A stretch of 64,000 nt of DNA from Candidatus Hodarchaeota archaeon (GCA_048886685.1 JBHLKM010000020.1:11301-75300), one strand, 5' to 3'. Positions 4,370 to 45,484 are shown, numbered from the stretch's first letter. The notes: generated by a model from the letters alone, not told the origin. Numbers and translations: made by a program.

Positions 4370-6205
4370 TTAAGATTTTCGTTTTCTAACGAAGAAAGTT
4401 AAGGCTATTATTCCGATTAGTGCACTTTCTACAAGAACAATAATCAATAAAATAGTACTCAAATCCAATGCTAAACCACCTGGGGCAGAACATCTGTTAT
4501 TTACAAATAAATTACCAGCGCTTCCTGTTTCATTGTAGCAGTCGTCATTCCCTACGAATAAGTTATTCGTTATTATATTATTATTACTTGTATCTAAAAA
4601 TGTCCCGTTTTTATTATTATTCGCTGTATTAGATAAAATCGAATTAGCGTCGCTATTGAGTAAATGAATTCCATTCATTTCATTGTTGCTAGCAGTATTA
4701 TCCATTATTGTATTGCTATCACTCCCTTCAATTGCTATCCCATGTTCTAGATTAGACTTTGCGATATTATCCACTAATAAATTATAGTTACTTGACGAAA
4801 GTAAATGAATTCCGCTCAAATTATTAAATTGACCAATACTAGACCTTAGAATATTATTAGTGCTACTCGATAAAAACCTTATCCCATCTAATCCATTATG
4901 GTGAGCATTGTTGTCTTCAATAAGGCAATTAACTGAACTAAATAATCTAATTCCGTTTTCACGATTTTCATAAACAATATTATCGGTGCAGGAGATATTA
5001 TCTGCACTATTTATCCGTATACCATTCCCTGTGTTATTATAAGCCGTATTTTTGTGTACTATTGAATCTTGACATGATGTCAAAAAAATTCCCTCATCTC
5101 CATTATGATTCGCGCTGTTTTCAGAAACCTCGTTATTTGCAATACCTGTTAAATAGATGCCATCATCTTGATTATTATTAGCTGTATTTTTTGAAATTGT
5201 ATTAAATTCTGAGACTGACATGAGATGGATTCCAAAGTAGTTGTCATTTACCGTATTAGACCTAATTAGAGTATGAGTGCTTTGTTCTAATCTAATTCCA
5301 TCATTAATACTCTCAGTGATATCATTTCCAGAAATTTTACACCAATAACTCTGAGAAATCCGAATGCCATGATTATCAGAAGTAGAAATGGTATTACCTA
5401 ATATTTGTGTATTATTGGACATTTCATTGTTAATCCCTATATTAGTGCTATTGATGATCGTATTAGAACTGATTGTAACGGCATTACAATCATTAAGGTA
5501 TATCCCATCAGTAACGCTTACTATTACATCATTATCTTCAATAAGAACATCCTCAGAATTATCAAGGTTAATTCCATAAGCCAAATTGTCATTAATCATA
5601 TTTGAATCTACATGTATATTATCTGAATCAGCTAAATTTATACCAGTTACGCTTCCTGAACAATTATTGTCCCTTAGAGTTATATGACTACAGTTATCAA
5701 CAAGTATATTTATAAATATATTCCATGGCAATTGGTTCTCTTTAATTAAACCATTTGTAGTATTATAGAGTAAAATTCCAGCACTAAAACCTGTTATTAG
5801 GAAATCACAATTAAGAACTCGAAAATATTTTCTAGAGTTAGAAATATTCAAACAATATATACCACTGGTCGTATTGAATAAATGATTTCTTATAATATAA
5901 GGATCTCCAGAAGTCCCAGAACCTGTACAAATACCTGTAGCTTTCGCAGCAGCCCAATTTTTAGCAGGATTGGTCTCATCAATCTCTACCGTGCTGTTAT
6001 AAGTTGCTGATAGCTGTAAATCTTCTATACTCTTTGTTTGATTTGTCACTTTTGAAAATGGTAAATAAGAAAAAATTAATCCCGTATTTAATGTAAAAAG
6101 CACTATTATAACAGAAATTAATATTGCATTTCTCAAATTATTTGATTTCATTTTTTCACGATCTATTTTTTTGATAACAATTTTAAAAAATTGTATGTTA
6201 CTCAA
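4370..6205 (-). CDS. Parallel beta-helix (NosD/pectin-lyase-like) repeat surface protein
   Basis: Many ~22-aa repeats of type GIxL..S.NNxIxxNxxxxN; GSGTSGDPYII motif; N- and C-terminal TM helices with KRKS tail. Confidence 0.88.
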   Translation of the reverse strand: MSNIQFFKIVIKKIDREKMKSNNLRNAILISVIIVLFTLNTGLIFSYLPFSKVTNQTKSIEDLQLSATYNSTVEIDETNPAKNWAAAKATGICTGSGTSGDPYIIRNHLFNTTSGIYCLNISNSRKYFRVLNCDFLITGFSAGILLYNTTNGLIKENQLPWNIFINILVDNCSHITLRDNNCSGSVTGINLADSDNIHVDSNMINDNLAYGINLDNSEDVLIEDNDVIVSVTDGIYLNDCNAVTISSNTIINSTNIGINNEMSNNTQILGNTISTSDNHGIRISQSYWCKISGNDITESINDGIRLEQSTHTLIRSNTVNDNYFGIHLMSVSEFNTISKNTANNNQDDGIYLTGIANNEVSENSANHNGDEGIFLTSCQDSIVHKNTAYNNTGNGIRINSADNISCTDNIVYENRENGIRLFSSVNCLIEDNNAHHNGLDGIRFLSSSTNNILRSSIGQFNNLSGIHLLSSSNYNLLVDNIAKSNLEHGIAIEGSDSNTIMDNTASNNEMNGIHLLNSDANSILSNTANNNKNGTFLDTSNNNIITNNLFVGNDDCYNETGSAGNLFVNNRCSAPGGLALDLSTILLIIVLVESALIGIIALTFFVRKRKS

Positions 6206-21540: not shown

Positions 21541-22659
21541 ATGACTCAAATAGAGAGGAAAAATATGCCAAAGGAGAATGACTCTAAAGAGATAATGGAT
21601 AGAAAAATAGAACATCTCAAAATACCTTTAGATCATGACGTACAACATTCTAAAAACTATTTTAATGATATAAAATTGATACATCATCCAATTCCAGATG
21701 TTGATGTTGACGAAGTTGATCTTTCAGTGAAGTTTTTTAATAAAAAAATATCCGCACCAATTTGTATTTCAGCAATTACTGGGGGTCATCCTATCTCAAA
21801 AGAAATAAATGAAATTTTAGCTAAAGCAGCAGAAGAAGAAAATATTATAATGAGCGTAGGAAGTCAAAGAGCAGGGCTAGAAAATCATACCTTATTAGAT
21901 TCATTTAAAATTACCCGTGACGTTGCCCCTACTATTCCTATTATCGGAAATATTGGTATTGGGCAGGTTAGTAATCTTAATTTTGAATTAGAGGATTTTA
22001 ATAAATGTATAGAGATGATAAATGCTGACGTGATGGCAATTCATTTAAATATTTTACATGAATTAGTTCAAGATAAAGGAGATCTTTCATATAAACTTTT
22101 CAGTAAAAATTTTCAGAAAATTCGGGAAAAATACAACATTCCAATAATTGCAAAAGAAGTTGGAACAGGCTTTAACCAATCATTAGCTATGATTCTCGAC
22201 AAGCTTGGTTTTGACGGATTTGATGTCGGAGGTGCTGGAGGCACTAGTTTTGCAGCAATTGAATCAAAACGTGAAAACCTTAATAATTTAAGGTACACGC
22301 GAGATCCTTCTGTAGTATTTAGGGAATGGGGGATTCCCACACCTGTAAGCATAACTTATGTTAGAAAGGTGTCTCAAAAACTGATTATTGCAACCGGAGG
22401 TTTAAGAACAGGAATTGATATAGCAAAGTCTCTTGCATTAGGTGCTGACATAGGAGGTTTTGCTTATAACTTTCTCCAATCTGCATGGAAAGATAGAAAA
22501 GATAATTCTATTTCTCATACTATTAAAGAAATAAAAACCTTAAAAAATGAATTACGTTCATGTCTATGGTTAATGAATATAGATGAAATATCTAAATTAA
22601 AAGGAAAAAAAGATAAATATGTTATTCTTGGTGAATTATATAGATGGTTACACCAATAA
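21541..22659 (+). CDS. fni: Type 2 isopentenyl-diphosphate delta-isomerase
   Basis: RKIEHL, ITGG, GSQR, HLN..HE..Q..GD, KEVGTG, GAGGTS, WGIPT, TGGLRTG. Confidence 0.95.
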   Translation: MTQIERKNMPKENDSKEIMDRKIEHLKIPLDHDVQHSKNYFNDIKLIHHPIPDVDVDEVDLSVKFFNKKISAPICISAITGGHPISKEINEILAKAAEEENIIMSVGSQRAGLENHTLLDSFKITRDVAPTIPIIGNIGIGQVSNLNFELEDFNKCIEMINADVMAIHLNILHELVQDKGDLSYKLFSKNFQKIREKYNIPIIAKEVGTGFNQSLAMILDKLGFDGFDVGGAGGTSFAAIESKRENLNNLRYTRDPSVVFREWGIPTPVSITYVRKVSQKLIIATGGLRTGIDIAKSLALGADIGGFAYNFLQSAWKDRKDNSISHTIKEIKTLKNELRSCLWLMNIDEISKLKGKKDKYVILGELYRWLHQ

Positions 22660-22666
22660 TATCCTT

Positions 22667-22903
22667 TTAATTTAGTGCATCAAAAACCTTGTTGACTAGA
22701 TGACAACCCCTATTATTTTCATCAGAAAAAATACATCTATGCCTAATATCATTCTTTTTAATTGAATATTTCATACATCCCCAGCATTGTGCTTTCGCAA
22801 AACTAATTTTTTTTTCACGATTTTGTTCTCTTATCTCTTCACATATCTGTAATGCAATTTCTTCTGGAATAGATTTCTTATTTTCCTTCATTTCACATTT
22901 CAA
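22667..22903 (-). CDS. Small Cys-rich hypothetical protein
   Basis: 78 aa with ICEEI, CWGC, RCIF and GCHLV; possible metal binding. Confidence 0.65.
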   Translation of the reverse strand: MKCEMKENKKSIPEEIALQICEEIREQNREKKISFAKAQCWGCMKYSIKKNDIRHRCIFSDENNRGCHLVNKVFDALN

Positions 22904-23014
22904 TTTTAAAATCTGATTAATCTTATTAAGATAACAACATTTTTATTTGTATTAAAAAGTTCAGTAGACCAATCCTTATTCTTGAACTCACTTAAAATTA
23001 ATATTTAGAAGATT

Positions 23015-23422
23015 TTAGAGAAGTTCATCTTCTAATTGTTGGGGAATATCTTCCAAAGAATCCTCAATAATCTCTTCAAACTCAGTAAACGCTCCAATCT
23101 GACCTTTATAATCCTTCAATTTTTCAGAATAAAGTTTTAAGAATTTGTTTGATATTTTTTCTAATTCACGATTAATCTTTTTCTGATTGAATCTTTTTGA
23201 CGAATTAGCAATGAATGTAATGTCACGTTTCTTAATTATCGTAAATCTTTTATTATCTAACTCAAAATTGGATAACCCACCATCCACTAATTGCTCGGCA
23301 AAAGTGTTTAACGCACTCATCATTGCACCAAATGCTTGAGGAGATACAAATTCATTGAACACCCTATGAAACATTACTATTCCAGATTCATTCAAAATCC
23401 AAATATCTTGGAGACTTTTCAA
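23015..23422 (-). CDS. Stand-alone longin-fold protein
   Basis: IWILNESGIVMFHR, FGAMMSALNTFA, F.K.Y...L..Y.G....F..F pattern typical of longin/adaptor-sigma-like domains. Confidence 0.75.
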   Translation of the reverse strand: MKSLQDIWILNESGIVMFHRVFNEFVSPQAFGAMMSALNTFAEQLVDGGLSNFELDNKRFTIIKKRDITFIANSSKRFNQKKINRELEKISNKFLKLYSEKLKDYKGQIGAFTEFEEIIEDSLEDIPQQLEDELL

Positions 23423-23480
23423 TTTAATTCCCCTCTATTTTAGCTATTTAAGTCTTAAACTCTACAAAATTTAATTCTTT

Positions 23481-24029
23481 TTAAATTGTTCCCCATCTTT
23501 TTATATTACTTTCTATCCCAATTTGGTCTAATATTCTTCCAATGGTGTATTCAATAAGTTCTTCTACGCTTTTTGGTTTTATGTAGTATGAAGGGATTGG
23601 GGGGCAAATAATTACACCCAATCTTGCTAATTTAAGCATATTTTCAAGGTGTATTGCACTGAATGGTGTTTCTCTTACGACTAATAATAATTTCCTTTTT
23701 TCTTTTATCATTACATCCGCTGCTCTTGAAATTAAATTATTTGCATAACCATTTGCTATTGCTGATAAGGTTTTCATTGAACAAGGAATTATTACCATAC
23801 AATCTATCTTGTAGGACCCGCTTGATGGTGGAGATAATAGATTATCTACGTCATAGTTTTTATCTGCTAATTTGCGAATATCAGAAACCTTATGTTCTGT
23901 TTCAATATTTATTATTTTTTCAGCAATTTTAGAGATGATAAGTTCAATTTCAATCTTTTTCTCTCTCAAAGTTTTTAGAAATTTAACTGCTAAATCAACT
24001 CCTGTGGCTCCAGTAATAGCTACTAACAT
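23481..24029 (-). CDS. ubiX: Flavin prenyltransferase
   Basis: AITGATG, SSGS, PCSMKTL, RAADV..KE.R, RETP, PPIPSYY. Confidence 0.95.
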   Translation of the reverse strand: MLVAITGATGVDLAVKFLKTLREKKIEIELIISKIAEKIINIETEHKVSDIRKLADKNYDVDNLLSPPSSGSYKIDCMVIIPCSMKTLSAIANGYANNLISRAADVMIKEKRKLLLVVRETPFSAIHLENMLKLARLGVIICPPIPSYYIKPKSVEELIEYTIGRILDQIGIESNIKRWGTI

Positions 24030-24141
24030 CTAACTTTATCTCACTAATTTTGATAAATAAAAATTTATAATATTGAACTTAATAATTCTTCTTTGAATTT
24101 TAGTTCTTATCTTTTTCTATATTAGAATAAGATTATATTTT

Positions 24142-25209
24142 TTAGAATTTTCTCTCTATTACAAAATTTAATAGACTTTCAAAAAATTCAACTTCGGATT
24201 TATTAATGAAAGGTTTTAATTTATCTAAAGATGACTTTGCCTTTTGAAAGTATATGTATGCTAATTCTTTGCATAAATTAACTACATCTGCTTTAATAAA
24301 CAAATCTTTAACTTCCTGAACATCACTTTGAGTCATAGAAGGATTTTCAAGTAATTCAACGAGCCTTTTTTTATTCAAGCCATCTAAATTGTCTAAAGCA
24401 GTTAATTTTAAAGCAGTCAATTTATTTTCTCGGATATCACCATCAGTTGGTTTTCCCGTTACTTTTTCATCACCAAATGTTCCTAAAATATCGTCAATTA
24501 TCTGAAAAACAATACCAAGATTTATACCATATATGGAAAGATCAGTAAAACAATTATTAGGGGCCTGAGCATAATTTGCACCTATTAAAATTGACTTCTC
24601 AATCAAAGCTCCAGTTTTGAGTGAAATCATTTCAATATAATCAGAAAGGGTGAGATCTGTTTGGTTAACCATATTAGTTTCAATTAGAACACCATTAGCA
24701 ATTTCTATAAAAGCTTGCTGATAATATTTTACCGCCTGTAAGTTCAAATCCCTATCAAAATCATTAAAAAAATATGCTTCTAAACCTAAAAAGAAAGCTG
24801 AGTCTCCACCAATGATTCCTATAGAATTCCCGAAATCTGACGCAATCATCCGTTTTAATTCATATTTTTCATGGTAATTACGGAATCTAAAGTGAAATGC
24901 GGGTTTTCCTCGTCTAAAATCATCCTTATCAATTATATCATCATGTATCAAAGACGCATTATGGAGAAATTCAATACCAACACTTGGAAAAACAATTGTT
25001 TCATCCTTTTTTTTATTAAAAGCATTATACGTAGCGATACACAGCAATGGACGGAGTCTTTTTCCTCCAGCTAGAAAATAATCTTTTAGTTCTGAATAGT
25101 AATCTACTAAAAATCTATTTTTTATATTTTTTAATTTCATGTCATAAATAGATTTAATTGCATCATTGATCTTGGCTTTATACTCTTTTAAATACTCATC
25201 AAGTTTCAT
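24142..25209 (-). CDS. idsA: trans-polyprenyl diphosphate synthase (GGPP synthase)
   Basis: GGKRLRP, HDDIIDKDDFRRG, KTG, FQIIDD, GK...GDIRE.K. Confidence 0.92.
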   Translation of the reverse strand: MKLDEYLKEYKAKINDAIKSIYDMKLKNIKNRFLVDYYSELKDYFLAGGKRLRPLLCIATYNAFNKKKDETIVFPSVGIEFLHNASLIHDDIIDKDDFRRGKPAFHFRFRNYHEKYELKRMIASDFGNSIGIIGGDSAFFLGLEAYFFNDFDRDLNLQAVKYYQQAFIEIANGVLIETNMVNQTDLTLSDYIEMISLKTGALIEKSILIGANYAQAPNNCFTDLSIYGINLGIVFQIIDDILGTFGDEKVTGKPTDGDIRENKLTALKLTALDNLDGLNKKRLVELLENPSMTQSDVQEVKDLFIKADVVNLCKELAYIYFQKAKSSLDKLKPFINKSEVEFFESLLNFVIERKF

Positions 25210-27135: not shown

Positions 27136-29958
27136 TCACTCCATAAATTCATATTTAATCTTTAAAGTAACTATGACATGAGGTTTTAATTCTATTTCAA
27201 GATTGTTCCGAGTTAAATTAGTTATTTCTGCTTTAATATTATTCTTAGGTTTCTCTTCAAGAAAATTAACTATTTCGGCATTTTCAATCAAGATTTTCTC
27301 ATAAAAAGCTAATCTTGCATTTTGAGATTTAGATGAAATATTATAAATTCTAATAATAATAAAATTTCCTTCCTCTGCTTTTTTCAGGGCACTTAATAAA
27401 ATACATTTATTATCTATTTCAAGAAACCGTAAGAAGGGAGGAAGATAAGACTCAATTTGGCTTGTTTTAGATCTACCAAAGTAGGAAACCATACCTGTTG
27501 GGTTTAACATAACTTTATTAGAAGTTCTAATAGCGCTTTGAGCCATTGCGGGAAACATTGGTTTTAATGTATTTATAAATTCTTTTGCTCTTAGATGAAT
27601 ATTTGAATCTAACCAGCTTGATTTAGATTCTGTAGTAACCGATATTTCAAAAGTATGGGTACCCAAACATTGTGCTCCTGGAGTTTTATAACCAGGACCT
27701 GCATGAGACTTTCTTGTACTGAAATCATCACGAGACAACCATTCAATACAGCGCAGAAGAGTTATAGCAAAAGTTATTGTTTTATCCTCATTAACGATTG
27801 CTTCATATTCTGGCAATCCAATATTTAATATAGCAAATGTTCTTAAATTGTCGCTGATTGACACAAAATCTTTTTGATGATTAGTAGGTAAAGGATTTTG
27901 AACCCAATTATCTGCTTTAGGTAATTCAACATTTCTGGGTACAACATAAAAATGACCATCAGCATGAACTACATCAGCTTTTATCTTAGTTGGGAATAAT
28001 ACACGAATTCTGTGATCTCGACTGTTATTTTCAATTATAATTTTAAAATCTATTCTCTTGATAGTTTTATATAGTGATATATAAACAGTTATTCTATTGT
28101 CAACCAACCAATCTTCTCTATTATATCGATCCTCTGTAAGAGAATGAGGAAGCTTTAGGTTTAACCTCAATTTGAAGGTTTTTTGAGATGGACCATCTAT
28201 ATACACAGATTTCTCAAAGAGAGCAGCGTCTTCAGTTGAGAATCTTAAATCTGTCTGATTCTCTTTTGGACCAGAAAAATCGTATTCATCCCCCCAATCT
28301 CCCACATCTTCGAATTCACATATTTTTTCATATATAATTCCCGTTTCCTTATCTTTAACGTTAATTAGACCATCTGATTTAATTTCAACAAGATAAAATT
28401 CATTTTCTAAGAATTCTTTACTAATTCTAAATTCTTCAGTCTTGGGATTAAAAGAGCTCTCAGACACTGTAGGAACCAGATAATAAACCCTATAACCTAA
28501 TGCGGGAACATCAGCTAGAAATGAGATTTTATGGCTAACTCCTAGCTTTCGTGTAAATCTTGGTTGTTCTTCAACAAGCCAATATTGAAATTCAATTTCT
28601 TCTTCATTAAAGTCAATTAATTTAATATTAAAGGGTAATTTTTCACCTTTTGTTCTTTTGGAGATGAAAGTAAACTCTACTCTATCTTGTCTTTTCCATG
28701 GAAGTGGATTAAAAACAATTAAAACATTACGATCTTCATAATTGGAATTAAGATTAACAAGTTCAGTTAAGTATAAAAATGAGTTTTTAAATACTTCTTC
28801 ACCTATTTGTTCTGCCCAATCAAAACGAGTTTTCATCTCATCATGAACCTCATCTATACTACAACCGCAAATACTATCATGTGGTGAATTTTTTTGCAAC
28901 CATTTTAGACCAGTTAAAATATAATTCTTTGGATATCTGAAATTTCCATATTTATCGAGTACCAAACTCATAGTTGATATTGGTTCAGTATATTTCTCAT
29001 ATAAATACTCTATTGCGGTATTTCTTTGTTTTATCCACATCCGTGCTGAAAGTACGCCAGACAAGAGAGGTGAGTATCTTCCTCCTCTCAATTCGCCTTG
29101 ATATTCTTTCAACTCGGCATTTGATTCCAGTACTTTATTAATATAATATTCAAAGTCTGCTTGCTCTAAATGAGTGTCAGGATATAATTTATTCCATTGA
29201 TCGATTATCATTGGAATTTCTGGGGTAACTTCTTCATGATCTACTCCATTATTTAATAGAACGTTAGGTGTTGCGACGTATTTCTCAAAATTTAATACAA
29301 GATTTTTTATTCTTCTCATTGCTGGTTTGAATTCTCCTTTTACAGTTTTTGTATTCAAATATGCTAGATTATGATAAGTTAAAATTAGATGTATTCCTAA
29401 TACAGATGCCGCATTACCAGGAGCATTCCATATAAATTCCATGTTTAAATTATTTTCTTCAAATTCATTACCAAATCCTCGCATAAATAATATTGAGGGA
29501 ATTTCACATCCACTTATTATCTGAGGTAATTGTGCAATGTGTCCAAAAGGATCCGGTATATATCCTGCTTTCATAACCTTACCGAATTTCCTGCTAATTT
29601 GATGTCCAATCATAATATTCCTAATTAAAGATTCACCACTAACAAGAAATTCATCAGGTAGTACATACATAGGACCAATTGAAAGCCTTCCTTCTTTAAC
29701 ATATTTTTTAATTTCCTCTTCTCGCTCTGGTCTTACTTCTAAATAGTCTTCGAGTATAATAGTTTGTCCATCGAATGTGAAGCTTTTATAATCCGGATTG
29801 GTTTTTAGGATCTTTAATAATTTATCCATCATAATCACAAGCCTAGCTCTAAATTCTTGAAATGGGAGGTACCAATCATGCTTTACATGTCAATCGTATA
29901 AAGTTTCACGGTCCCAATGTGTTTCTGGCACAATTATGATGTTCTTAGACGTAACCAT
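27136..29958 (-). CDS. GH38 alpha-mannosidase, two exons: join(29958..29905, 29874..27136), 930 aa
   Basis: DGQ, PDEFLVSGESLIRN, PDPFGH, NGVDH, HDSICGCSID. The missing N-terminal metal-binding motif THWDREWY is rebuilt by removing 29875..29904. Confidence 0.9.
29875..29904 (-). other. 30-nt bulge-helix-bulge intron candidate in mRNA
   Basis: ACUUUAUACGAUUGACAUGUAAAGCAUGAU. Central helix CGUG/CAUG, 3-nt bulges AAA and AUU, inner stem CUUUAUA/UGUAAAG. Contains in-frame UGA at 29892-29890. Confidence 0.85.
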
Positions 29959-30136: not shown

Positions 30137-31315
30137 ATGGGCACAAAATACACTACTTTACAACTAATAAACGATCTTGAGAAAGGATTAGGTGGATTAT
30201 CTCAAGCCAGTACGTTATTGGGATTTGGTTCAACTTATTTATCTGATTTAAAGCAAAGAATAACAAATTCAAATGTTAAAGGTTATAATCCAAAATATAA
30301 GTTCTCACTAAGTAATTTAAATGTTTTTAAAGAAAACTTAGAAAGAAATATTGGAGAAAAAGGTGATTTTTGCTTATTTATGATAAATAAATATAGTAAA
30401 TGTAATAATGACTTAAAGCATTATTCAAGACAACAATATAGATCTACTCTCAATCCTAATTATTTTAAGAGAATTGATACTCTCGAAAAGGCTTATTGGT
30501 TAGGATTTTTATATGCAGATGGTGAAATAAGAAATAAGTATAAAGAAAAATACTGGTATAGAATTTCTGTAGAACTCTCAGTCAAAGATAGAGATCATCT
30601 TGAAAATTTTTGTAGAGCCATTGGTCTAATCCCTGCTGAATTAATAAAGGAAAGAGAAAGATATAAAAAATATAATAATAAAATAAAGAAATATCGAATG
30701 GCATATGTACGATTCAGATGTAAACCAATGGTTAAGGATTTATTGAATATTGGCTTTTCAAGTTCAAAAACATTAAAGAAATCAATCCCCAAAATATTTA
30801 AAAAAAGTAATGATTCAACTTTTGGTAGGAAATTATCATTAGCATGGCTCCTTGGCTATTATGATGGTGATGGGAATTCGAATAGTACAAGAATTACTTC
30901 ATCTAGTAAAAATCTTCTAAATGAAATTAAGTCTGAATTTAATATTAAATTCGATGTTAAACAACAGTATGATAAAGGTGAAAAATCTCGTCTTGATGGT
31001 GTAATATCCACAAAACCTCATTGGAGATTAACATTGGGAGCATCTTTATTTAATGAGATGATTCAAAATTATCAAGATAGTATGAAAAGAAAGAGAAGAA
31101 TATTTAAAGAGAAAGATATGGTATCATATAACCGCTTGAAAAAGAAAGTGTTAAATAAAGAAAATTTACAATATTTAGTTGGTACATATAAGATTATTTC
31201 ATTAATAAAGAGATTTGATGTCTCTACAACTACTTTTTATCGCTTATGCAAAGAATGGAATATAAATACACCAAAAATGCGGAATCTAACTAAAAAAAAA
31301 ATAGAACTTTGCTAG
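30137..31315 (+). CDS. Free-standing double-motif LAGLIDADG homing-endonuclease-like protein
   Basis: Two motifs, AYWLGFLYADG and AWLLGYYDGDG; very basic; possible HTH segments at both termini. No intein termini. Confidence 0.88.
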   Translation: MGTKYTTLQLINDLEKGLGGLSQASTLLGFGSTYLSDLKQRITNSNVKGYNPKYKFSLSNLNVFKENLERNIGEKGDFCLFMINKYSKCNNDLKHYSRQQYRSTLNPNYFKRIDTLEKAYWLGFLYADGEIRNKYKEKYWYRISVELSVKDRDHLENFCRAIGLIPAELIKERERYKKYNNKIKKYRMAYVRFRCKPMVKDLLNIGFSSSKTLKKSIPKIFKKSNDSTFGRKLSLAWLLGYYDGDGNSNSTRITSSSKNLLNEIKSEFNIKFDVKQQYDKGEKSRLDGVISTKPHWRLTLGASLFNEMIQNYQDSMKRKRRIFKEKDMVSYNRLKKKVLNKENLQYLVGTYKIISLIKRFDVSTTTFYRLCKEWNINTPKMRNLTKKKIELC

Positions 31316-31480: not shown

Positions 31481-33001
31481 TTAAGAATTCAATATAGATT
31501 TTCCTATTACACTTGAATGCGGTTTCTTTCCTAATAAGCCTAATAAGGTGGGAACAATATCTGTAGTTTTACAATAATCTAATTCCAATTTAGGAATGTC
31601 TAGAGATCCTCCTATAATCAGTGGCACAAGCATTGAATTTCTGCTGGCAATATCATGCGAATAAGGAGAAACACCTTTTGTTTTTCCATGTTCATAATTA
31701 AAGTTAAATTCGCCCTCAGTAGAGACCATTATATCACATGAACGGGGATTTTTAAAATGACGGGGGAGTTGATCAATAATATTTATAAAATTCGTTTGAA
31801 AAGTTGTTCTTACCCACTCATCAATAGAATGAAATTTATTGTCCAGAAGAGCAGAAGATTTTTCATTTTTTACATAACCAAATAAATCTTCATCATCAAA
31901 CACATATTTGGTCATTTGATCTTTTCCTATCCCATAATATTCAATTCTCCCTTTCAGAATTTTATTATTTTTAATATATCTTCGTCCTAAATGTATAAGC
32001 CCTTTTTCAGCGGTACTAGCATCATCCTTATAATACATCAATTTCACTCCTGGAATGTCCCACAATATTTTAAATAAATCCAATTTAGATGTTCCTTCTC
32101 CACTTGTTTTGTAGTTCTTCATTTGATTAAGTGTGGGATGATGATACCATGTATCTCCCTTAAAGTTGAAAAATCCTATACCCCCAAGATTTGCATCAAA
32201 ATCACCCTCTCCTTTGATAGGATTATAGGGTTTTAGTCCCTTTTGATGAAAGAATGGTTCAAGATCAAAAATATTTGGAGCTTTATAATTACCGTGATCA
32301 GAAGTAATAGCAATTGCGGTATCTTCATAGCATCCTACGTTCTTAAGTGTTTTAATTAAAGATCCTATAAATTTATCACATCTTAATACTAAATTAATGT
32401 AGTCAGGATGATCAAATCCTTTTTCATGCATAAATTCATCAGTATGTGGAATATAACCTACAGAAACTTTTGGAAGTTCCATATTTGGGAAAACTTCTTT
32501 AGGATTTTTGTAAATATCTTCTATTCTTTTTAAGATCAATTCCGGTTTAAATTCTTTTGAAACAGTGAAAGTAGAACCTCTATATAAGAAGCTTGTTACG
32601 CTTAAAAAATTCCCCTCACCTGCTTGTTCAAATATTGTTTTAACATGTTTGCCAATGTCTTTATTTATTTTTAATACGTCTCGTCGCTCACTGTAATTAC
32701 GAATGAAAGGTGGCTTCTTTTTTTCTGAGGGAGGAACTGTACGATCAATCCAATGATAATTGGGGACCCCACTTCCCTCTCTGGGAAAAAATCCAGAATT
32801 TGAACCCGTTATTATATCTGCATAACAAGGTAAAGTAACACTGGGAAATGACGTAACGGTATTTTGACATGAAACACCATTAATAGCGAGTTGAGAAACG
32901 TTTGGAAGATTTCCCTTGTCCATCCATTTGAATAAATGTTCTGCTCGCACATCGTCAAGAATAATCAATATAACTTGGTTAACTTTCGCACTTCGGCTCA
33001 T
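31481..33001 (-). CDS. Alkaline phosphatase superfamily (nucleotide pyrophosphatase/phosphodiesterase)
   Basis: IILDD, FPSVT, DEFMH, TSDHG, SHD, DIVPT. Confidence 0.9.
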   Translation of the reverse strand: MSRSAKVNQVILIILDDVRAEHLFKWMDKGNLPNVSQLAINGVSCQNTVTSFPSVTLPCYADIITGSNSGFFPREGSGVPNYHWIDRTVPPSEKKKPPFIRNYSERRDVLKINKDIGKHVKTIFEQAGEGNFLSVTSFLYRGSTFTVSKEFKPELILKRIEDIYKNPKEVFPNMELPKVSVGYIPHTDEFMHEKGFDHPDYINLVLRCDKFIGSLIKTLKNVGCYEDTAIAITSDHGNYKAPNIFDLEPFFHQKGLKPYNPIKGEGDFDANLGGIGFFNFKGDTWYHHPTLNQMKNYKTSGEGTSKLDLFKILWDIPGVKLMYYKDDASTAEKGLIHLGRRYIKNNKILKGRIEYYGIGKDQMTKYVFDDEDLFGYVKNEKSSALLDNKFHSIDEWVRTTFQTNFINIIDQLPRHFKNPRSCDIMVSTEGEFNFNYEHGKTKGVSPYSHDIASRNSMLVPLIIGGSLDIPKLELDYCKTTDIVPTLLGLLGKKPHSSVIGKSILNS

Positions 33002-37450: not shown

Positions 37451-40400
37451 ATGAAAATCTATAGAAAAAACTTAAAATCTAAAATTGACATTCTTGGAAT
37501 TCTTTTATTCTGTTTAATTATTCCTCTTTTTCTAAATATTCCATTGCTAGGACTTAAAACAAATTACATTAATCAAGAATCTGATGAAAAAAATGTTAAT
37601 TATGATAAAATAAAAACAAATGCCCCTCCTAATGCCATTAGTTTTCAATATTACAAGACTATTACGATCGATCATAATAAAGTAGCCGGATCTGGTTCTT
37701 ATAGCAATTTTCCTGTATTAATTAATATTACAGACTCCGATTTAAGATTGGATGTTCAATCAGATGGAGATGATATTGCGTTTTCATTTGAGAATAATTG
37801 GTTAGATCATGAAATAGAATTATTTGATCAAACATTCAGTTCAACCCATGCTCACTTGGTTGCATGGGTTCGAGTACCCGATTTATCTGGGGTTATTGAT
37901 ACAGTTATCAGAATGTATTACGGCAATTCTAGCATGAGCTCTCGAGAAAATCCAACGGGGGTATGGGAAAGTGGTTATCGAGGTGTATGGCATTTAAATG
38001 AAGAGAGTCTTGCGAATCCAGCCATAGATTCAACCTCAAATTCTAATGACGGTACATACACTAATAGTCCAGTTTTGGGTCAAAATGGCCAAATTCACAA
38101 CTCTGTTGGATTTACCGATTCATTAGGTCAAAGGATTGAAGTTTCTGATGATGCCAGTTTGGATATATCTAATGAACTTACCGTAGAAGCTTGGATTAAT
38201 CCAAACCTTTTACCCGTTGGCATTGGTTCTAAATGGATGACCATAGTAAGTAAAATGGATGGATCTTGGGATGGGGGCAGCGTCTCTGATTTTGATATTT
38301 ACGTGGCAATTAATGATTATAATAATTATGACATTGGGCTTTCAAATCCTTCTAACTCTTATGACGAATGGAGTTCATCGGTATCTGTTTTAAATGCAAC
38401 TTGGCAGCATTTTGTCTTTACTTATCAAAGCTCAACTTCAATAGGAAGAATATTTTTAAACGGCCTGTATATGGCAGAACATAATTTTGGGATTGGTACG
38501 TTAGGCACGAATAGTAATCCCTTTTTTATAGGATTTAATATAGCCTGGACAGGAGAGGTATTTGATGGATTAATAGATGAAGTTCGTATCTCCAGCAGAC
38601 CTCGCTCATCAGGATGGATCTATACAGAATATCAAAATCAAAATGATCCAGATTCATTTTATTTAATTGGATCTGAACAGATCGTAACAACGGAACCTCC
38701 TGATGTAGGTTACTTCACATATTATAAAATTATTACTATTGATGCAGCTAAAATCGCTGGAACAGGGAGTCATTTCAATTTTCCAGTATTAATTTCAATT
38801 GTTGATGAGGATTTAAAATATCATTGTCAACCTGATGGTGATGATATTGCTTTTTCTACGGGAGGGGATTGGATAAATCATGAATTTGAATTATTCAATC
38901 AATCATATAGTACTACTGAAGCTCAATTAATAGTTTGGGTTAGAATTCCCATTTTGTCTACGAGTTTAAACACAACCCTCATTATGTATTATGGTAATGC
39001 AACAATGACTTCTCAAGAGAATCCAAGTGGTGTGTGGAATAATTATGTTGGTGTTTGGCATTTAAACGAAAGTCCAGCTGGAATTGTATATGATAGTACA
39101 GCTTACAGTAATGATGGTACAACTCTGGGCTCTATGAGCTCATCTGACTTAGTTTCTTGTCAAATAAGCACAGGTTTTGAATTAGATGGATTTGATGATA
39201 TGATTAGTATACCTGAAAGTACGAGCTTAGATTCGGTATCTGATGAAGCAACTTTATCATTATGGATAAATTGGGTTAATTCTTCTGATGGAGGATATCA
39301 AAGAGTGATGACCACTAGTAATCGTTTCACAGCAAATCCGACCCCGCCCCCAACACTCTTCCAAACTGATGGTTTTGAATGGGCGGTTCAACCTGATGGT
39401 GACCACTTCTTTTATCCGTATGGTGGCGTCAGTACTAATTATAATCTTGTTACCGATCCTTTTACAAATAATATTTGGCATTATCTCGTATTAACCTTAA
39501 ATTATGCTACAAAAAGTGTAAAAATATATTTAGATGGAACATCATTAAGTTTTACCATAGAAAATGTACCCTCGCAATGGATTCAATTAGCTAATCTCGA
39601 TGATTGGTTATGGGGAGGAAATTTGGTCGCAAGTGCGAGTCAAATTCTTGGTAAATTTGATGAAATACGAGTTTCTAATGTAGAACGATCTTCGGGTTGG
39701 ATCCTAACAGAGTATAATAACCAATATAATCCAAATTCATTTTATTCCGTAGGTAATGAACAACTAGTAAATGTTCAGCCAGTAAATGCGGATTACTTTA
39801 ATTATTATAAAGTTTTAACTATTGATCACACAAAGGTTAATGGAACAGGAAGTCATGTTAATTTTCCTCTTCTTATTTCAATATTTGATAAGGATTTACG
39901 ATATGATGTTCAAAATGATGGTGATGATATTGCATTTTCTATAGATGGTCAATGGTTAGACCATCAAATAGAACTCTTTAATCAAACTTACAGTGGAACC
40001 CACGCTCGTTTAGCTGCATGGATCCGTATTCCATTTTTATCAACTGCTTTTGATACTAACGTTTCGATGTATTACGGTAATTCTACGATGACCTCACGAC
40101 AGAATCCATCTCAAGTATGGAATTCGGGTTATGTGGCTGTTTGGCATTTGAATGAAGACCCCTCTGGCACACCTCCTCAGATAAAGGATAGTACTATTCC
40201 TGGGAGTGATGGTATCTCTTATGGTACAATGAGTTCTTCAGACCAAGTCTCCGGAATGATCGGAGGTGCGTTAGATTTTGATGGGATTAATGATTATATT
40301 GATCTTGGAAATCCTGGAGAATTGCATATTACAGGTGAATTTACTGTTCAAGCTTGGTTTAAGGTTAATTTTGTTGGTAATGATTATTTAGTCGTTAAGA

Positions 40401-43400
40401 GTGGGGGCACCGGCTTTAGAGGTTGGGATATCAGTTTTGATGATGATCCAGTGATCGCTCCTGACGGTTGGATTATGTTTCGTTACTCACCAGATGGAAC
40501 TAATACGATTTACACTGGTTGGGAACGAGTAAGGGTAAATCAATGGTATCATGTTGTCGGAGTATTCAAACCAAGTGAATATTCTAAGTTATTTTTCAAT
40601 GGAACTGAAGTAGGAATAAGAACGATTGGTGTTCCGCCATCTATGAATGATCCTTCTCTCCCTGTACGTATAGCTAGAAGATCTGATGCTGGTACGTCAT
40701 ATGTTAATGGTACTATTGATGAAGTTCGTATTTCTAACGTGGCTCGTTCAAATGATTGGATTGCCACCGAATACAATAATCAATATGATCCTTCCTCCTT
40801 CTATTCAATTGGTACGGAAATTCCACTGAAAGCTAAAATAGATTTAGAGGCTCAAATTGTAGCAATTGATCTCTATGGAAATCAATTACCAAATATAACT
40901 ATTTCAATGTATCAAAATACTCAATTAATAGATCGCGACATTACTGATGATGTTGGTTCTGTTTTATTTACTGAAATCATCGAAGGAGAATATAATTTTA
41001 CGGCAACGATAAGCTCAACTATCGCTAATGTAACTGAGCTTGTGAACATTACGTCTCAAGCAATTTTGCTTGATAAAGCATTTCAAACTATTACTTTAAT
41101 TTGCAACATAACTTCTCATTTCTTCGAAATTATTGATCTAGATAGCAGTCCTGTTGAATCTGGATGGATCATGGTTGGAAATGACACCCATATACTTCAA
41201 AAGTGCGTAATAGATCTTACAGGGCATACCACCTTTCGATGGGTGGAGGCCCCTCCTTCGGAGTATAATTATACGATCTATTATCGTGATATTATATATA
41301 ATCCCTCTACTCTTGAACTTGCCTCAGGAGATATTACTACAGAGAATGCTACTATACAAGTTCAAGTGGATCTCACAACCATAGAGTTTACAGTGCTAAC
41401 CCTTGATTCTCCGATAACTCCTGTGAGTGGGGCTAAGCTCAAGTTAACTGTGGGTGATCCTTTCGGAGCGAGTATAGTAAATTTAACAACGAATCTTGAC
41501 GGGAAAGCCACCTTGCGGTGGCTGGATTCCTCAGGAATAGGTGATGATTATTGTTTACAGATTGAATTTTTTGGAGAAAATCGATTATTCAATGATACTC
41601 TATTTTTAGATCACTTTGTAAATAACATAAGTTTTCCAGTTGTAAATAAGGATTCTATGGAATTAAGAATTTCAATTAATCTGAATTTGTTCCAAACAGA
41701 ATTAATCTCCTTAAATCCCACAGATTATATAGATGTTGAATGGGGCTCATTATTGAAGTTGCGAGCCTTATTTAATGTAAGTAGAGTTGAAACGGGCTAT
41801 GAACACCTTTTAGGACCTACTTATGCGGATTCCATGGTATATGAAATGTTCTTAGGAGGAAATACTATTCTTTCTGGTTCATTTTTAGAAGAGGCGGGGA
41901 ATGAGGGTAAGCATTATATAGAAATAGATACAAAAAATATTGAAAAGGACGAAAGCTATTTACTAATTATCTCAGCTCAAAAATCGGGATATACAATTCC
42001 ATCAGATTTAATTCTTCAATTAAATATTCTAGAGATTGATGTGGAATTAAATCAGTCGGATAATAATGATTCTAGCTCATTCGCATATTGGTTAGATGGC
42101 GTTAATATGACATTGAAATCCTACGGTCAAAATTCTGAAACTCTTACAATAGAGAATGCTCTTTTTCAAAGTGTTGACCATGAGTTTAATTTTGTGATTT
42201 CTGATGTTCACCAACAATGGAATTTATCCAAAATTGAGTTTAATATTTATGGTATTTCATGGAACACCGATATCCCAAATATTAATATTACCATCGAAGA
42301 TCCTTATGGCACTTTTTCCTATACATTTTATAATTATACTCATAGTGGATGGGATTACACTCAAGGCACATGGACAGGAATCACCCTTGAATTAAACCAA
42401 GCGAGTAGAACAAATGATAATAATTTCGAGTTTAAAATTAGTGGTACTTTTGATGGTGTTGTTGATATTATCGCTGATGCTTATTTTATAAGAGATGCTC
42501 TCAATGTGCAATACTCCAAATTTAATGTTAGTAGCGAACTCTCTCTTTTAACTGAAACAGAAGGATGGGCAATTAATAACGTGACCTTCGAGATCTCGAA
42601 CTGTTATTATACCTCTAACTGGAGTAAGGTAGACTTATCAACCCTCACAAATTTAAATATTACAACAAACGAAGGTTTTAAATACTCATTAGATTACGGC
42701 TATTCAGACGGCACGGGTATTCTAACTATAGATGATAAAGTCATTTATCCTTTTGGAAATCAATTCCTTTTTATAATCGAAAGCTTTCCTGATGTAATTT
42801 TTGATGCGCTTATAAAAGTTAACTATATTCAGGAATTTTACAAAACCCAAATTCTGGAAACCTATAATCTTACAAAAACAGAGCAAGGAGTTAACAACGG
42901 AGGAATTTTTCAAGTAAGTGCAGTAGAGTCAAGTTGGGCTGAGCATGAAGCATTTTTATGGGTCAAGGCTATTAGAAGTGGTTTAAATTACTTCTTTCCA
43001 TCAGATGTAAATATGAATATTACAATTGGAAGCCAAACATACAGTATTGAAGATCATGGAACAGGAACTGGACGTTTTTCATTGACAGGTTTTACTAAAA
43101 ATCAAATATTTCAAGCAGTCATTGACACATCTTCCACTGTAAATTTTAGTTTGGTGCTTTCAGTCAAATATTTACGAACTATATCTTATGAAATTGTAGG
43201 TGCGTTATCTTACACTGTTATTGGAGCTCCTTCCGTATATGGAACAGTTCAATACGATTCAAACTTAGGATATTATTTAAAAACAATCGATACTTCTTCA
43301 CTTGATGCTGATGATTATACAGTAAGATTCACTATGAATAAAGATCATTATCAACTCGCTAAAAAGGATCTTAAATTAACGGTTTTAAATCGTCCTACAT

Positions 43401-45484
43401 TGCTCAATGGTTCTTCTGAATTCTTTAGAAAAATTGCAAAAATTTATGTAAAGGATGCAGTGAATTTTAGTTTAATATTTACTGATGAGATAAGTGGTAC
43501 TAAAATAACTAATCTTGATAACCAATATTTTATCTGGGAAAGCTATGATCAGAGTGGTAATGTTAATGAAACTGGTCTTGGTAATGTATTTAGTGCTATC
43601 GATAACACTTATATATTAGATTTTAACACAAGAGCAAGAGCTGTTGGAGAATATCTACTCATCATTGTTCTAGAGAAGGATAATTATGATTACAAAAATG
43701 GGATGATCCTTCTTACAATCATAAAAAGAGATATTGATTATGTTTTAAGTAAAAATCTTCAAGATGGGCAAACTAATGTAGTTCAAGGCAAGAAAGTAAT
43801 AATAGGAATAAGTCTTACAGATCCTACAAAAAGAGATTCTTGGTTAATTAATGCGACTATAAAACTAACAGTTGGAAGTAAAACCTATGAATTCGTACAA
43901 CTTGCCAACGGTACTTACTCTCTTGAGTTTTCTACAAATAATATAAATGCATTCTTCACCTCAAAAACACTTCGAGGTACTATTACAATTTCTAAAGTTG
44001 ATTATAATCCCGTTGAAATAAAAATTACGATTGTTGTAGAGATGGAAGAAATATTACCAGGGATACCCACTTTTTATTTTCTGTTAATTGTATCAGCTAT
44101 AATTGCACTTGTTGGTAGTTTAGTTGGATATCGAGTCATTCAAAATGCAAGAATACCCTCCTTTGTAAAAAAAGTAAGAGAAATGAAGAAATCTATAAAA
44201 GGAGATAAATCAATTGCAGAATCACTTATATATCGTGAAAAAGAAGTATTCGTTGGAGAAATATTAAATAGCGATTGGAATGAAATTGGATTATCTTTAG
44301 AAGAAATATTTGGGATAACTATTGAAAAGGATAAGAAGAAAAAAACTTCACAAAGAAAGACTTTTGAAACTCCTATTGAACATGAAAATAAACCAATTGG
44401 ATTGGTTTTAATGAAATGGGATGAGAGAATTGGCACTGAAATCAAGGTAAAATATCCCTCAGAGATTAATATTTCAGAAAAATCTTTAATGCAAATATAT
44501 AGCACTCATGAATATAGTGGAGAAAAAGGGATCATAACTTTAACCGCAGAAGCTACTAATATCCTATCCTATTATTCAGGGCCAGAGGAAGGGTATTATT
44601 TGCTTTTACTCTTAAATTTGGATGATGATCCTGATCTTTATGAAGGGGGAATTGCTGATGTATTAACTATTCTTTTAGAATATATTGAAGATGATACTTA
44701 TCTACAAATGCTACCTACCCTATTCCAGCGTTTAGCGTTATATCCATCGCTCAGTTATGAACAAATTCTAGCACTCACTTACCAAAACAAGATAAAACGT
44801 TCAATTCTGAATCTGTTAATAGACGAAGGTTTAGCAGTTAAATCAGAATTAATAATTTGGCTTAAAGATAAACAAACAAAAGGTTTCTTTGATTTAGACG
44901 CGATCTTTAGCGAAATGATTAAATCAGAGATTTTAAAAGTTAGTTCTATTAAAGATATACCCTCCGAACTTATTTTTCTTACTAAAGATATCTTCATGGC
45001 AAGAATTCCTCCTCTTAAATTACTTGAAAAACCCACTAGTTTTGGTTTACCATCTCAATTTGCGAAAGAATATCCTAACGATGTAAAAAAATTCTTCCAG
45101 ACATATCATCCTACAGAAGAAGATAATATAAAGATTGCTGAGATATTAGTTAATCCTCAAGTTTATGAGACGTTAAGACTCTTAAGAAATGCAATTGTTA
45201 CTAGAGACGACCTTCAGAAACTCAGTAGTAGGGGAGTTGATGATATTTATAGTGTTCTAAAAATACTCTGGGATAATAAGATCATAAAAGTTTTTCACGA
45301 TAATCAAAACATTGAATATTATGCTCTTATTTCTGATTTTTATATCGATTATATTTTTCCAAAGTATTTATTGAAATCTATTAAAGATGCTTATGAGCAA
45401 AAATCAAAAGTTAAAAAAGCCTTGATTGAATACCTTAATATCCTTGAAGATACTTATTACAAACTAAAATCAGAAGAAAAATAA
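37451..45484 (+). CDS. Giant single-pass surface protein A: 3x(DUF2341 + LamG/ConA-like), Ig-like stalk, TM, cytoplasmic longin/DENN-like + helical domains
   Basis: Three YYK.ITID...NFP...DGDDIAF...WVR.P...MYYGN / VWHLNE...DEVRIS...EY.NQ modules; TM near 44070-44130; about 450-aa cytoplasmic tail. Confidence 0.88.
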   Translation: MKIYRKNLKSKIDILGILLFCLIIPLFLNIPLLGLKTNYINQESDEKNVNYDKIKTNAPPNAISFQYYKTITIDHNKVAGSGSYSNFPVLINITDSDLRLDVQSDGDDIAFSFENNWLDHEIELFDQTFSSTHAHLVAWVRVPDLSGVIDTVIRMYYGNSSMSSRENPTGVWESGYRGVWHLNEESLANPAIDSTSNSNDGTYTNSPVLGQNGQIHNSVGFTDSLGQRIEVSDDASLDISNELTVEAWINPNLLPVGIGSKWMTIVSKMDGSWDGGSVSDFDIYVAINDYNNYDIGLSNPSNSYDEWSSSVSVLNATWQHFVFTYQSSTSIGRIFLNGLYMAEHNFGIGTLGTNSNPFFIGFNIAWTGEVFDGLIDEVRISSRPRSSGWIYTEYQNQNDPDSFYLIGSEQIVTTEPPDVGYFTYYKIITIDAAKIAGTGSHFNFPVLISIVDEDLKYHCQPDGDDIAFSTGGDWINHEFELFNQSYSTTEAQLIVWVRIPILSTSLNTTLIMYYGNATMTSQENPSGVWNNYVGVWHLNESPAGIVYDSTAYSNDGTTLGSMSSSDLVSCQISTGFELDGFDDMISIPESTSLDSVSDEATLSLWINWVNSSDGGYQRVMTTSNRFTANPTPPPTLFQTDGFEWAVQPDGDHFFYPYGGVSTNYNLVTDPFTNNIWHYLVLTLNYATKSVKIYLDGTSLSFTIENVPSQWIQLANLDDWLWGGNLVASASQILGKFDEIRVSNVERSSGWILTEYNNQYNPNSFYSVGNEQLVNVQPVNADYFNYYKVLTIDHTKVNGTGSHVNFPLLISIFDKDLRYDVQNDGDDIAFSIDGQWLDHQIELFNQTYSGTHARLAAWIRIPFLSTAFDTNVSMYYGNSTMTSRQNPSQVWNSGYVAVWHLNEDPSGTPPQIKDSTIPGSDGISYGTMSSSDQVSGMIGGALDFDGINDYIDLGNPGELHITGEFTVQAWFKVNFVGNDYLVVKSGGTGFRGWDISFDDDPVIAPDGWIMFRYSPDGTNTIYTGWERVRVNQWYHVVGVFKPSEYSKLFFNGTEVGIRTIGVPPSMNDPSLPVRIARRSDAGTSYVNGTIDEVRISNVARSNDWIATEYNNQYDPSSFYSIGTEIPLKAKIDLEAQIVAIDLYGNQLPNITISMYQNTQLIDRDITDDVGSVLFTEIIEGEYNFTATISSTIANVTELVNITSQAILLDKAFQTITLICNITSHFFEIIDLDSSPVESGWIMVGNDTHILQKCVIDLTGHTTFRWVEAPPSEYNYTIYYRDIIYNPSTLELASGDITTENATIQVQVDLTTIEFTVLTLDSPITPVSGAKLKLTVGDPFGASIVNLTTNLDGKATLRWLDSSGIGDDYCLQIEFFGENRLFNDTLFLDHFVNNISFPVVNKDSMELRISINLNLFQTELISLNPTDYIDVEWGSLLKLRALFNVSRVETGYEHLLGPTYADSMVYEMFLGGNTILSGSFLEEAGNEGKHYIEIDTKNIEKDESYLLIISAQKSGYTIPSDLILQLNILEIDVELNQSDNNDSSSFAYWLDGVNMTLKSYGQNSETLTIENALFQSVDHEFNFVISDVHQQWNLSKIEFNIYGISWNTDIPNINITIEDPYGTFSYTFYNYTHSGWDYTQGTWTGITLELNQASRTNDNNFEFKISGTFDGVVDIIADAYFIRDALNVQYSKFNVSSELSLLTETEGWAINNVTFEISNCYYTSNWSKVDLSTLTNLNITTNEGFKYSLDYGYSDGTGILTIDDKVIYPFGNQFLFIIESFPDVIFDALIKVNYIQEFYKTQILETYNLTKTEQGVNNGGIFQVSAVESSWAEHEAFLWVKAIRSGLNYFFPSDVNMNITIGSQTYSIEDHGTGTGRFSLTGFTKNQIFQAVIDTSSTVNFSLVLSVKYLRTISYEIVGALSYTVIGAPSVYGTVQYDSNLGYYLKTIDTSSLDADDYTVRFTMNKDHYQLAKKDLKLTVLNRPTLLNGSSEFFRKIAKIYVKDAVNFSLIFTDEISGTKITNLDNQYFIWESYDQSGNVNETGLGNVFSAIDNTYILDFNTRARAVGEYLLIIVLEKDNYDYKNGMILLTIIKRDIDYVLSKNLQDGQTNVVQGKKVIIGISLTDPTKRDSWLINATIKLTVGSKTYEFVQLANGTYSLEFSTNNINAFFTSKTLRGTITISKVDYNPVEIKITIVVEMEEILPGIPTFYFLLIVSAIIALVGSLVGYRVIQNARIPSFVKKVREMKKSIKGDKSIAESLIYREKEVFVGEILNSDWNEIGLSLEEIFGITIEKDKKKKTSQRKTFETPIEHENKPIGLVLMKWDERIGTEIKVKYPSEINISEKSLMQIYSTHEYSGEKGIITLTAEATNILSYYSGPEEGYYLLLLLNLDDDPDLYEGGIADVLTILLEYIEDDTYLQMLPTLFQRLALYPSLSYEQILALTYQNKIKRSILNLLIDEGLAVKSELIIWLKDKQTKGFFDLDAIFSEMIKSEILKVSSIKDIPSELIFLTKDIFMARIPPLKLLEKPTSFGLPSQFAKEYPNDVKKFFQTYHPTEEDNIKIAEILVNPQVYETLRLLRNAIVTRDDLQKLSSRGVDDIYSVLKILWDNKIIKVFHDNQNIEYYALISDFYIDYIFPKYLLKSIKDAYEQKSKVKKALIEYLNILEDTYYKLKSEEK
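41108..41599 (+). repeat. 492-bp identical direct repeat, copy 1 (copy 2 at 49249..49740)
   Basis: Base-by-base reading shows no mismatch; offset 8141 bp; flanks are similar but diverged. Confidence 0.9.

Follow-up and report, generated by a model that had tools for sequence, protein, structure and literature searches.

The window, that is, the whole 64,000-nucleotide (nt) stretch of DNA analysed here, comes from a Promethearchaeota (Loki) genome, in agreement with the Asgard source that a preliminary description of the sequence had considered probable. On its minus strand lies a GH38 alpha-mannosidase gene which, by direct reading of the sequence, starts with an ATG at 29958 and stops at 27136. 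The elements in and around its 5′ end are as follows:

27136..29874, minus strand: GH38 exon 2, 912 codons, opening with TGG at 29874 and beginning WYLP
29863..29916, minus strand: whole bulge-helix-bulge (BHB)-like motif with an imperfect exon helix (C29911-G29873; 29916-12 with 29867-63)
29875..29904, minus strand: BHB-type mini-intron, 30 nt, in-frame TGA at 29892-29890
29877-29880, minus strand: 3′ strand of the central helix, CAUG, pairing with CGUG with one G•U among 4 bp
29903-29895 with 29889-29881, minus strand: inner stem of the intron, placed by comparison and sequence reading
29905..29958, minus strand: working, cassette-borne GH38 exon 1, 18 codons ending in HWDRE and carrying the HWD metal-binding motif
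29907..29910, minus strand: 5′ (exonic) strand of the central helix, CGUG, within codons GAC CGT GAA
29959..30136, no strand: AT-rich spacer of 178 nt between divergent starts, with presumed cassette-borne promoters
30137..31315, plus strand: free-standing two-motif LAGLIDADG gene, 392 aa, intact, antisense to GH38, PF14528
31320..31370, minus strand: orphan original GH38 exon 1, 17 codons, its Trp codon now TGA
31481..33001, minus strand: phosphodiesterase/sulfatase-family gene, the usual GH38 neighbour in intron-less relatives, forming the outer flank of the cassette

Elsewhere in the window, positions 37451-45484 hold a 2677-aa open reading frame (ORF) whose repeated domains look extracellular and whose C-terminal region follows a transmembrane stretch, while 21541-25209 hold what is by inspection an isoprenoid cluster (type 2 IPP isomerase, UbiX-like flavin prenyltransferase, polyprenyl synthase).

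Exon 2 bears the Pfam domains PF01074, PF09261, PF07748, and PF17677, which correspond to the GH38 N, middle, C, and C2 domains. The N, middle, and C domains expected of the family are all present, and the HWDREWY motif becomes whole only once the insert is spliced out. The His and Asp of its HWD portion bind metal in GH38 enzymes, and the motif is conserved and uninterrupted in the solved structures 3lvt and 5kbp. Direct reading confirms what had been claimed for this site, namely that a stop-bearing 30-nt insert splits HWDREWY on the minus strand, and all the pairings attributed to it are present. A 4-bp central helix of CGUG with CAUG is flanked by two 3-nt bulges, AAA and AUU, on opposite strands, and leads inward to an intron stem of 7 bp followed by a C•A mismatch and one further pair. 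The exon-side helix comprises one C-G pair, a 5-nt bulge, and UGGGA paired with UCCCA; four of these exon-side pairs are fixed by coding sequence, and the motif would be of the relaxed kind. Applying the known rule that each bulge is cut after its second base (AA^A and AU^U) restores the frame and yields exactly CGU GAA UGG UAC, or R-E-W-Y. The predicted junction thus reads GACCGTGAA joined to TGGTAC (GAA to UGG), and the spliced product would be a 930-aa protein (18 + 912 codons) with an unbroken HWDREWY. Translation of the unspliced mRNA would end after 22 codons. The ORF call for this gene begins at the internal start 29838 and so gives a product without the metal-binding HWD, an example of how intron-bearing genes in Asgard genomes get truncated by gene callers. 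Rfam returned no match for the insert.

Comparison of orthologs, suggested earlier as a check on both the presence of the insert and compensatory base changes, was informative on both counts. Among 133 genomes of the family (GTDB genomes), the ortholog N-terminus is present in 95; the insert occupies the same GH38 site in 16 of these, spread over four genera, and is absent from the other 79. A pattern scan of metagenomes yielded 19 further GH38 insert loci, partly redundant and selected by the intron pattern itself. Named relatives are mostly Promethearchaeota/Lokiarchaeota; non-Asgard GTDB pattern matches and a single viral match were not GH38 and are ascribed to chance. Distinct inserts number 28, of which 27 are 30 nt and one is 29 nt long. 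Each is interrupted in frame by TGA, TAA, or TAG, the position of which varies and which is sometimes doubled, and the eight that lack the usual stop at offset 12 still keep one (rough shuffle product 0.004, with kin not independent). The 29-nt insert (L141:3515-3575) shifts the frame with its ends unchanged, and the exon 2 behind it is intact at 907 codons; the cut rule restores HWDREWY in all alleles, this one included. The central helix is 100% paired in the 16 GTDB alleles through G-C/G-U and U-A/U-G swaps, and forms 4/4 pairs in 27 of the 28 distinct inserts and 3/4 in one. The intron stem is 91% paired, and six of its nine pairs have changed on both sides, values that 0/500 shuffles reached, as counted on 16 alleles whose kin are not independent. 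In the same alleles, slid registers are 33–59% paired versus 95% for the BHB register. The codons GAC CGT GAA are found in 16/16 intron alleles versus 1/46 intron-less alleles, and exon 2 is full length (907–915 codons) in the 17 intron alleles checked, with a dN/dS of 0.13–0.22. Since it recurs at one site in 16 genomes and 19 metagenome loci, with covariation in its stem, the insert is more than chance. Two individual loci stand apart: L160 is an intron allele with CACT, which makes only 3/4 central-helix pairs and has a nuclease gene adjoining, and L025 (G002:C3:208601-209509) is a GH38 ortholog with a large deletion inside.

Thermodynamic folding of this particular allele in ViennaRNA gives a minimum free energy of −11.1 kcal/mol in an alternative register versus −6.3 kcal/mol for the BHB, a gap of 4.8 kcal/mol. 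The probability of the central helix is ~0.03 here, 0.05–0.08 in two other CAUG alleles, and 0.5–0.96 in most CACG alleles. Single-sequence folding of the GH38 insert produced no signal (z of about −0.3 to +1.5), and RNAalifold applied to the insert alleles favours a different register for the outer helix. As the folding of the lone sequence is unremarkable, the case for an intron rests on comparison.

The host genome encodes two EndA paralogs, one of 198 aa with Tyr/His/Lys-type catalytic residues and a His-less one of 200 aa, a combination that by its residues corresponds to that of (alpha-beta)2 enzymes. Such hetero-oligomeric EndA is the type tied to relaxed motifs and to cbf5 mRNA splicing (PMC2738675). 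An RtcB gene, a tRNA-Sec, and many intron-bearing tRNA calls are present as well. Conservation, covariation, the 29-nt variant with the same ends, the intact exon 2, and the EndA and RtcB genes together lend strong support to an intron of the EndA/RtcB type, and it is highly probable that the GH38 insert is a relaxed BHB mRNA intron that is spliced. In the GH38 pre-mRNA, the (alpha-beta)2 EndA would cleave both bulges behind their second base; ligation of the exons by RtcB, in the geometry and frame observed, would then produce the 930-aa enzyme with HWDREWY intact.

The intron forms the end of a ~1.45-kb cassette that opens with the dead old exon 1, continues with the LAGLIDADG gene in antisense, and then has a replacement exon 1 of foreign origin directly before the intron. 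The orphan exon 1 ends exactly at the GAA of the intron site, 4 nt from the nuclease stop. It is 94% identical to the 5′ end of GH38 in the intron-less sister G059, and the 100 nt upstream of it are 92% identical. The working exon 1, by comparison, shares 69% identity with that of G059 but 96% with that of G004, a genome whose GH38 outside exon 1 is ~60% identical in protein. Exon 2 is 60–87% identical to G059 in its first five 30-nt bins and 90–100% identical after them, which marks its initial ~150 nt as foreign sequence acquired by co-conversion. The spacer between the divergent starts shows 27–38% ungapped identity to the upstream DNA of intron-less sisters in most HEG-bearing pairs, and a sigma-70 promoter scan of it, a model that does not apply to archaea, scored at chance level. 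The nuclease carries its LAGLIDADG motifs at residues ~123–129 and ~240–246, with D128 and D245 invariant in 41 homologs. A PDB sequence search with it gave no match; its AF2 model (pLDDT 90.5) matches I-AniI, I-SceI, and I-DmoI in Foldseek, and a dN/dS of 0.23–0.35 indicates purifying selection.

The same breakpoint recurs in relatives. Orphans end at the same codon in G004 and G111, the latter being identical to intron-less G122 over 51 nt, and one orphan exon extends two codons more, to HWDREWY. A nuclease gene, intact or decayed, adjoins 6/16 intron alleles and 0/46 intron-less loci; the other ten intron alleles have none adjacent. Conversely, all seven close nuclease homologs with available DNA adjoin an intron-bearing GH38, and six of the seven retain an orphan exon 1. 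Intron status changes 19 times on a quick, unrooted exon-2 tree (residues 60–480, 68 rows) that cannot tell gains from losses; at least 12 of these changes are forced by well-supported branches. Nuclease status on this tree changes 12 times for 13 rows, and intron status is no more clustered than in shuffles (51/500). Two intron-less GH38 loci, L149:3363-3394 and L159:6994-7025, possess a cassette-like exon 1 and GAC CGT GAA. They may be precise intron losses or the donor lineage; matching the spliced-junction pattern, they sit on 8–33 kb contigs and are DNA alleles, not transcripts.

If the intron is spliced, it very likely spreads within a selfish homing cassette, and the explanation as a whole, a spliced relaxed BHB intron spread by a selfish LAGLIDADG cassette, is a probable one. 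To the anatomy, breakpoints, mosaic identity, co-occurrence, and patchiness observed, it adds a mechanism in which, most likely, alleles lacking the intron are cut by the nuclease and the gene, once repaired, is shielded by its intron. The LAGLIDADG enzyme would cut the intron-less allele at or near the codons between HWDRE and WY; cutting of the empty but not the occupied allele is suggested by the orphan breakpoints and by the absence of the nuclease beside intron-less alleles. Homologous repair would then bring in the nuclease gene, new promoters, the replacement exon 1, and the intron, leaving the old exon 1 stranded upstream, as is seen, and converting up to ~150 nt of exon 2, as is seen at this locus. 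In the restored gene, the intron would break the nuclease target with the protein unchanged. The nuclease would later decay or be deleted, presumably the route by which intron-only alleles arise, both states being found among relatives. Deletion would probably proceed via recombination between the two exon-1 copies. Intron-only alleles with a host-type exon 1 (e.g., L150, G017, and G110) fit such a deletion, or homing in trans.

The intron could instead be a regulated splicing switch that the host keeps for its mannosidase, akin to Ire1 and HAC1/XBP1, with the nuclease incidental. In its favour, the stop is retained in 28/28 inserts, including the eight without the offset-12 stop, an alternative fold vies with the BHB in this allele, and the intron outlasts the nuclease in 10/16 genomes. 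Yet selection against a defective full-length protein would account for the kept stops just as well, and a switch sits poorly with an insert that most orthologs lack, that differs between close sisters, and whose status clusters no better than in shuffles. The orphan exon, the foreign exon 1, and the nuclease linkage suggest invasion, leaving a host-kept switch unlikely. What survives of the EndA/RtcB-dependent gating put forward in the preliminary description is therefore the type of intron, upheld by comparison; the Ire1/HAC1-like regulation finds no support in an insert that is missing from 79/95 orthologs, scattered, and cassette-borne. Similarly improbable is a history like that of cbf5, in which the intron was gained once in the family ancestor and often lost, and a later cassette picked up an intron-bearing exon 1. 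The inserts are homologous and their sequence has one origin, L149 and L159 look as a precise loss would leave them, and change counts on the tree carry no direction. However, GAC CGT GAA occurs in just 1/46 intron-less alleles, so these are unlike loss products, and the orphan exons have the codons typical of intron-less alleles and match those of intron-less sisters, so the allele that preceded the cassette had no intron.

Other readings dispense with splicing altogether. Ribosomal bypass as in T4 gene 60, selenocysteine (Sec) insertion, or stop read-through could draw on the bypassed gap of T4 mobA, which has the same protective job (10.1101/2022.08.31.505936), on the tRNA-Sec of the genome, and on the 27/28 inserts that are in frame. 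Against them, the stop may be TGA, TAA, or TAG, is sometimes doubled, and shifts in position, and one insert measures 29 nt; the signals of T4-type bypass are lacking, as only 1/28 inserts has a GAA at the landing site to match that at take-off and the stop comes 2–5 codons in. Moreover, the conserved pairings are those of a BHB, and the canonical cut rule also repairs the 32-nt insert of tuf and the 31-nt insert of pfk, both of which shift the frame. A pseudogene lesion or assembly artefact might be suspected from a lone in-frame stop in a metagenome-assembled genome with 8.4% contamination, and an error at the DNA level had been entertained at the outset; but the insert recurs in 16 genomes from many independent assemblies, with exon 2 intact and under purifying selection. 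In light of this comparative evidence on the insert, exon 2, and EndA/RtcB, bypass or read-through is very unlikely, and a lesion or artefact can be practically dismissed. Two further candidates were rejected: a single large 1.45-kb intron running from the old exon 1, which has a premature TGA and no CGUG helix strand, and a self-splicing group I intron, given the 30-nt size, the BHB geometry, and no Rfam match. The preferred reading, then, is a spliced BHB intron carried by a homing cassette.

Such inserts are not confined to a glycosidase, as the same genome (G000) has them in purA, cobO, and pfk. Distant nuclease homologs (30–40% identity) also adjoin tuf, cobO, and rpoA1, in each of which a BHB-like insert interrupts a 5′ motif that canonical cuts would repair. 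The inserts found are the following:

L105:~3900-4030 (G004:C31, minus strand) and L106:~5430-5530 (G044:C52): tuf insert, LAGLIDADG homolog directly upstream
L112:5680-5710, L119, and L114 (G043, G052, G003): cobO insert, repaired by the cut rule
C17 near 95400 (G000): cobO insert in Walker A, 33 nt
L107:~5510-5545 (G048:C4): rpoA1 insert, 30 nt, 9-bp stem, 3/4 central helix, downstream of a LAGLIDADG homolog
C2 near 178200 (G000, L138): purA insert, 30 nt, repaired by the canonical cut rule
C16 51251-51850 (G000, L139): two pfk inserts, 31 nt and 30 nt, repaired by the cut rule

In G004 and G044, a 32-nt frameshifting BHB insert divides the P-loop of tuf (EF-1alpha) between GHIDHG and KST, and canonical cuts restore GHIDHGKST. 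The Walker A motif of cobO in G043, G052, and G003 is split by a 30-nt BHB insert accompanied by an orphan 5′ end and an antisense nuclease, the same layout as in GH38. Both pfk inserts are flawed in stem or helix. The genome-wide search recommended earlier for further BHB inserts in coding sequences was uninformative: two ab initio scans found no excess over decoy geometries, and the second missed the GH38 intron itself. The purA, cobO, and pfk inserts were verified individually. Other nuclease homologs had no insert in the flanks inspected, which cover a minority of the 38 loci, such as infB in G022, and no intron was seen at the sites inspected in the tuf, infB, and rpoA1 genes of G000. This genome has another LAGLIDADG homolog, degraded (L104:4250-5620, C16), whose tRNA-like neighbours contain hairpin inserts, among them a BHB of 30 nt. 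An in-frame stop in an hdrA-like gene (C11:122113-122142), matched as an intron in a scan, was set aside as probably a Sec codon, tRNA-Sec being present.

The balance tips slightly toward Promethearchaeota carrying a family of selfish cassettes, each with a free-standing LAGLIDADG gene, a replacement 5′ exon, and a BHB intron of ~30 nt. Every such cassette would target a conserved motif close to the 5′ end of its gene (GH38, cobO, tuf, rpoA1), and together they would be a main source of Asgard protein-gene introns. If so, several mRNAs per genome, essential ones included, would need EndA/RtcB splicing, and the sister lineage of eukaryotes would have undergone an invasion by non-spliceosomal introns.

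The literature searched, whose coverage largely leaves out subscription journals, describes no such arrangement in archaea. A 2026 preprint on Asgard tRNA introns names their arrival route as the central open problem, with no mention of homing or mRNA (10.64898/2026.10.13.758758). The one archaeal coding-sequence BHB intron named in PMC7714728 and PMC2738675 is that of cbf5, the origin of which is called unclear. In Crenarchaeota, the cbf5 introns measure 16–44 nt and often have a relaxed motif (Watanabe 2002; Yokobori 2009, PMC2738675), and a single gain followed by a few losses has been inferred for them (PMC2738675). The GH38 insert is likewise a short BHB-like intron in coding sequence, in a host with hetero-oligomeric EndA. 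Unlike cbf5, which has no nuclease, GH38 is a metabolic gene of Promethearchaeota with a free-standing LAGLIDADG gene beside it and exon 1 in duplicate, and its intron, predicted from sequence, has a patchy distribution even among close species. Archaeal rRNA BHB introns encode LAGLIDADG enzymes of the I-DmoI type (PMC2738675). They share with the GH38 cassette the union of BHB splicing with LAGLIDADG mobility, as well as a nuclease fold that matches I-DmoI; the GH38 nuclease, by contrast, lies outside the intron, in antisense, and its target is a protein gene. The introns that Ire1 and RtcB splice from HAC1/XBP1 are non-spliceosomal mRNA introns, as the GH38 intron would be, with RtcB-type ligation the probable common step. 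The GH38 intron differs in being absent from most orthologs, a patchiness that argues against a conserved switch.

Closer parallels come from homing systems outside archaea. The mobA/gene 60 bypass cassette of phage T4 was reportedly described by Bonocora in 2011. In it, a gap removed during expression blocks re-cutting (10.1101/2022.08.31.505936). On the proposed reading of GH38, both systems place a homing nuclease at a conserved metal-binding site and supply replacement coding sequence with a short protective gap that leaves the protein unchanged and stays when the nuclease is later lost. In T4 the ribosome hops over the gap and the two halves of the gene remain functional, whereas the GH38 gap would be an intron of the tRNA type. 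The GH38 cassette also differs in its dead original 5′ piece, in the LAGLIDADG class of its nuclease, and in residing on the chromosome of a cellular archaeon. Collaborative homing joins a free-standing endonuclease to a group I intron in T3/T7-like phages and cyanophage S-PM2 (PMC10448857); the nuclease lies outside an ORF-less intron, and its presumed cutting where the intron inserts would spread the two together. GH38 shows the same free-standing nuclease beside an ORF-less intron, co-inherited with flanking co-conversion. Its intron, however, is predicted to be a protein-spliced BHB and not a ribozyme, and its nuclease gene, lodged within the span of the original gene, comes with a new exon 1 and a presumed new promoter. 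In Allomyces macrogynus atp6 (Paquin 1994, as relayed in PMC4019555), a homing endonuclease gene arrived with a foreign gene end. The insertion gave the rebuilt host gene a foreign terminus and left the old fragment stranded, as at GH38, but at the 3′ end and in fungal mitochondria, whereas GH38 is rebuilt at its 5′ end with a protective mini-intron.

As an intron, the GH38 insert would work like that of cbf5; as a mobile element, the cassette resembles the mobA, collaborative-homing, and atp6 systems but belongs to none of them, its gap being neither bypassed nor group I. At this locus, the stages of arrival stand side by side: the empty allele, the full cassette with its orphan exon, the decayed nuclease, and the intron alone. 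Read as a cassette, it offers a testable route by which introns may enter the protein genes of eukaryotes' closest prokaryotic relatives.
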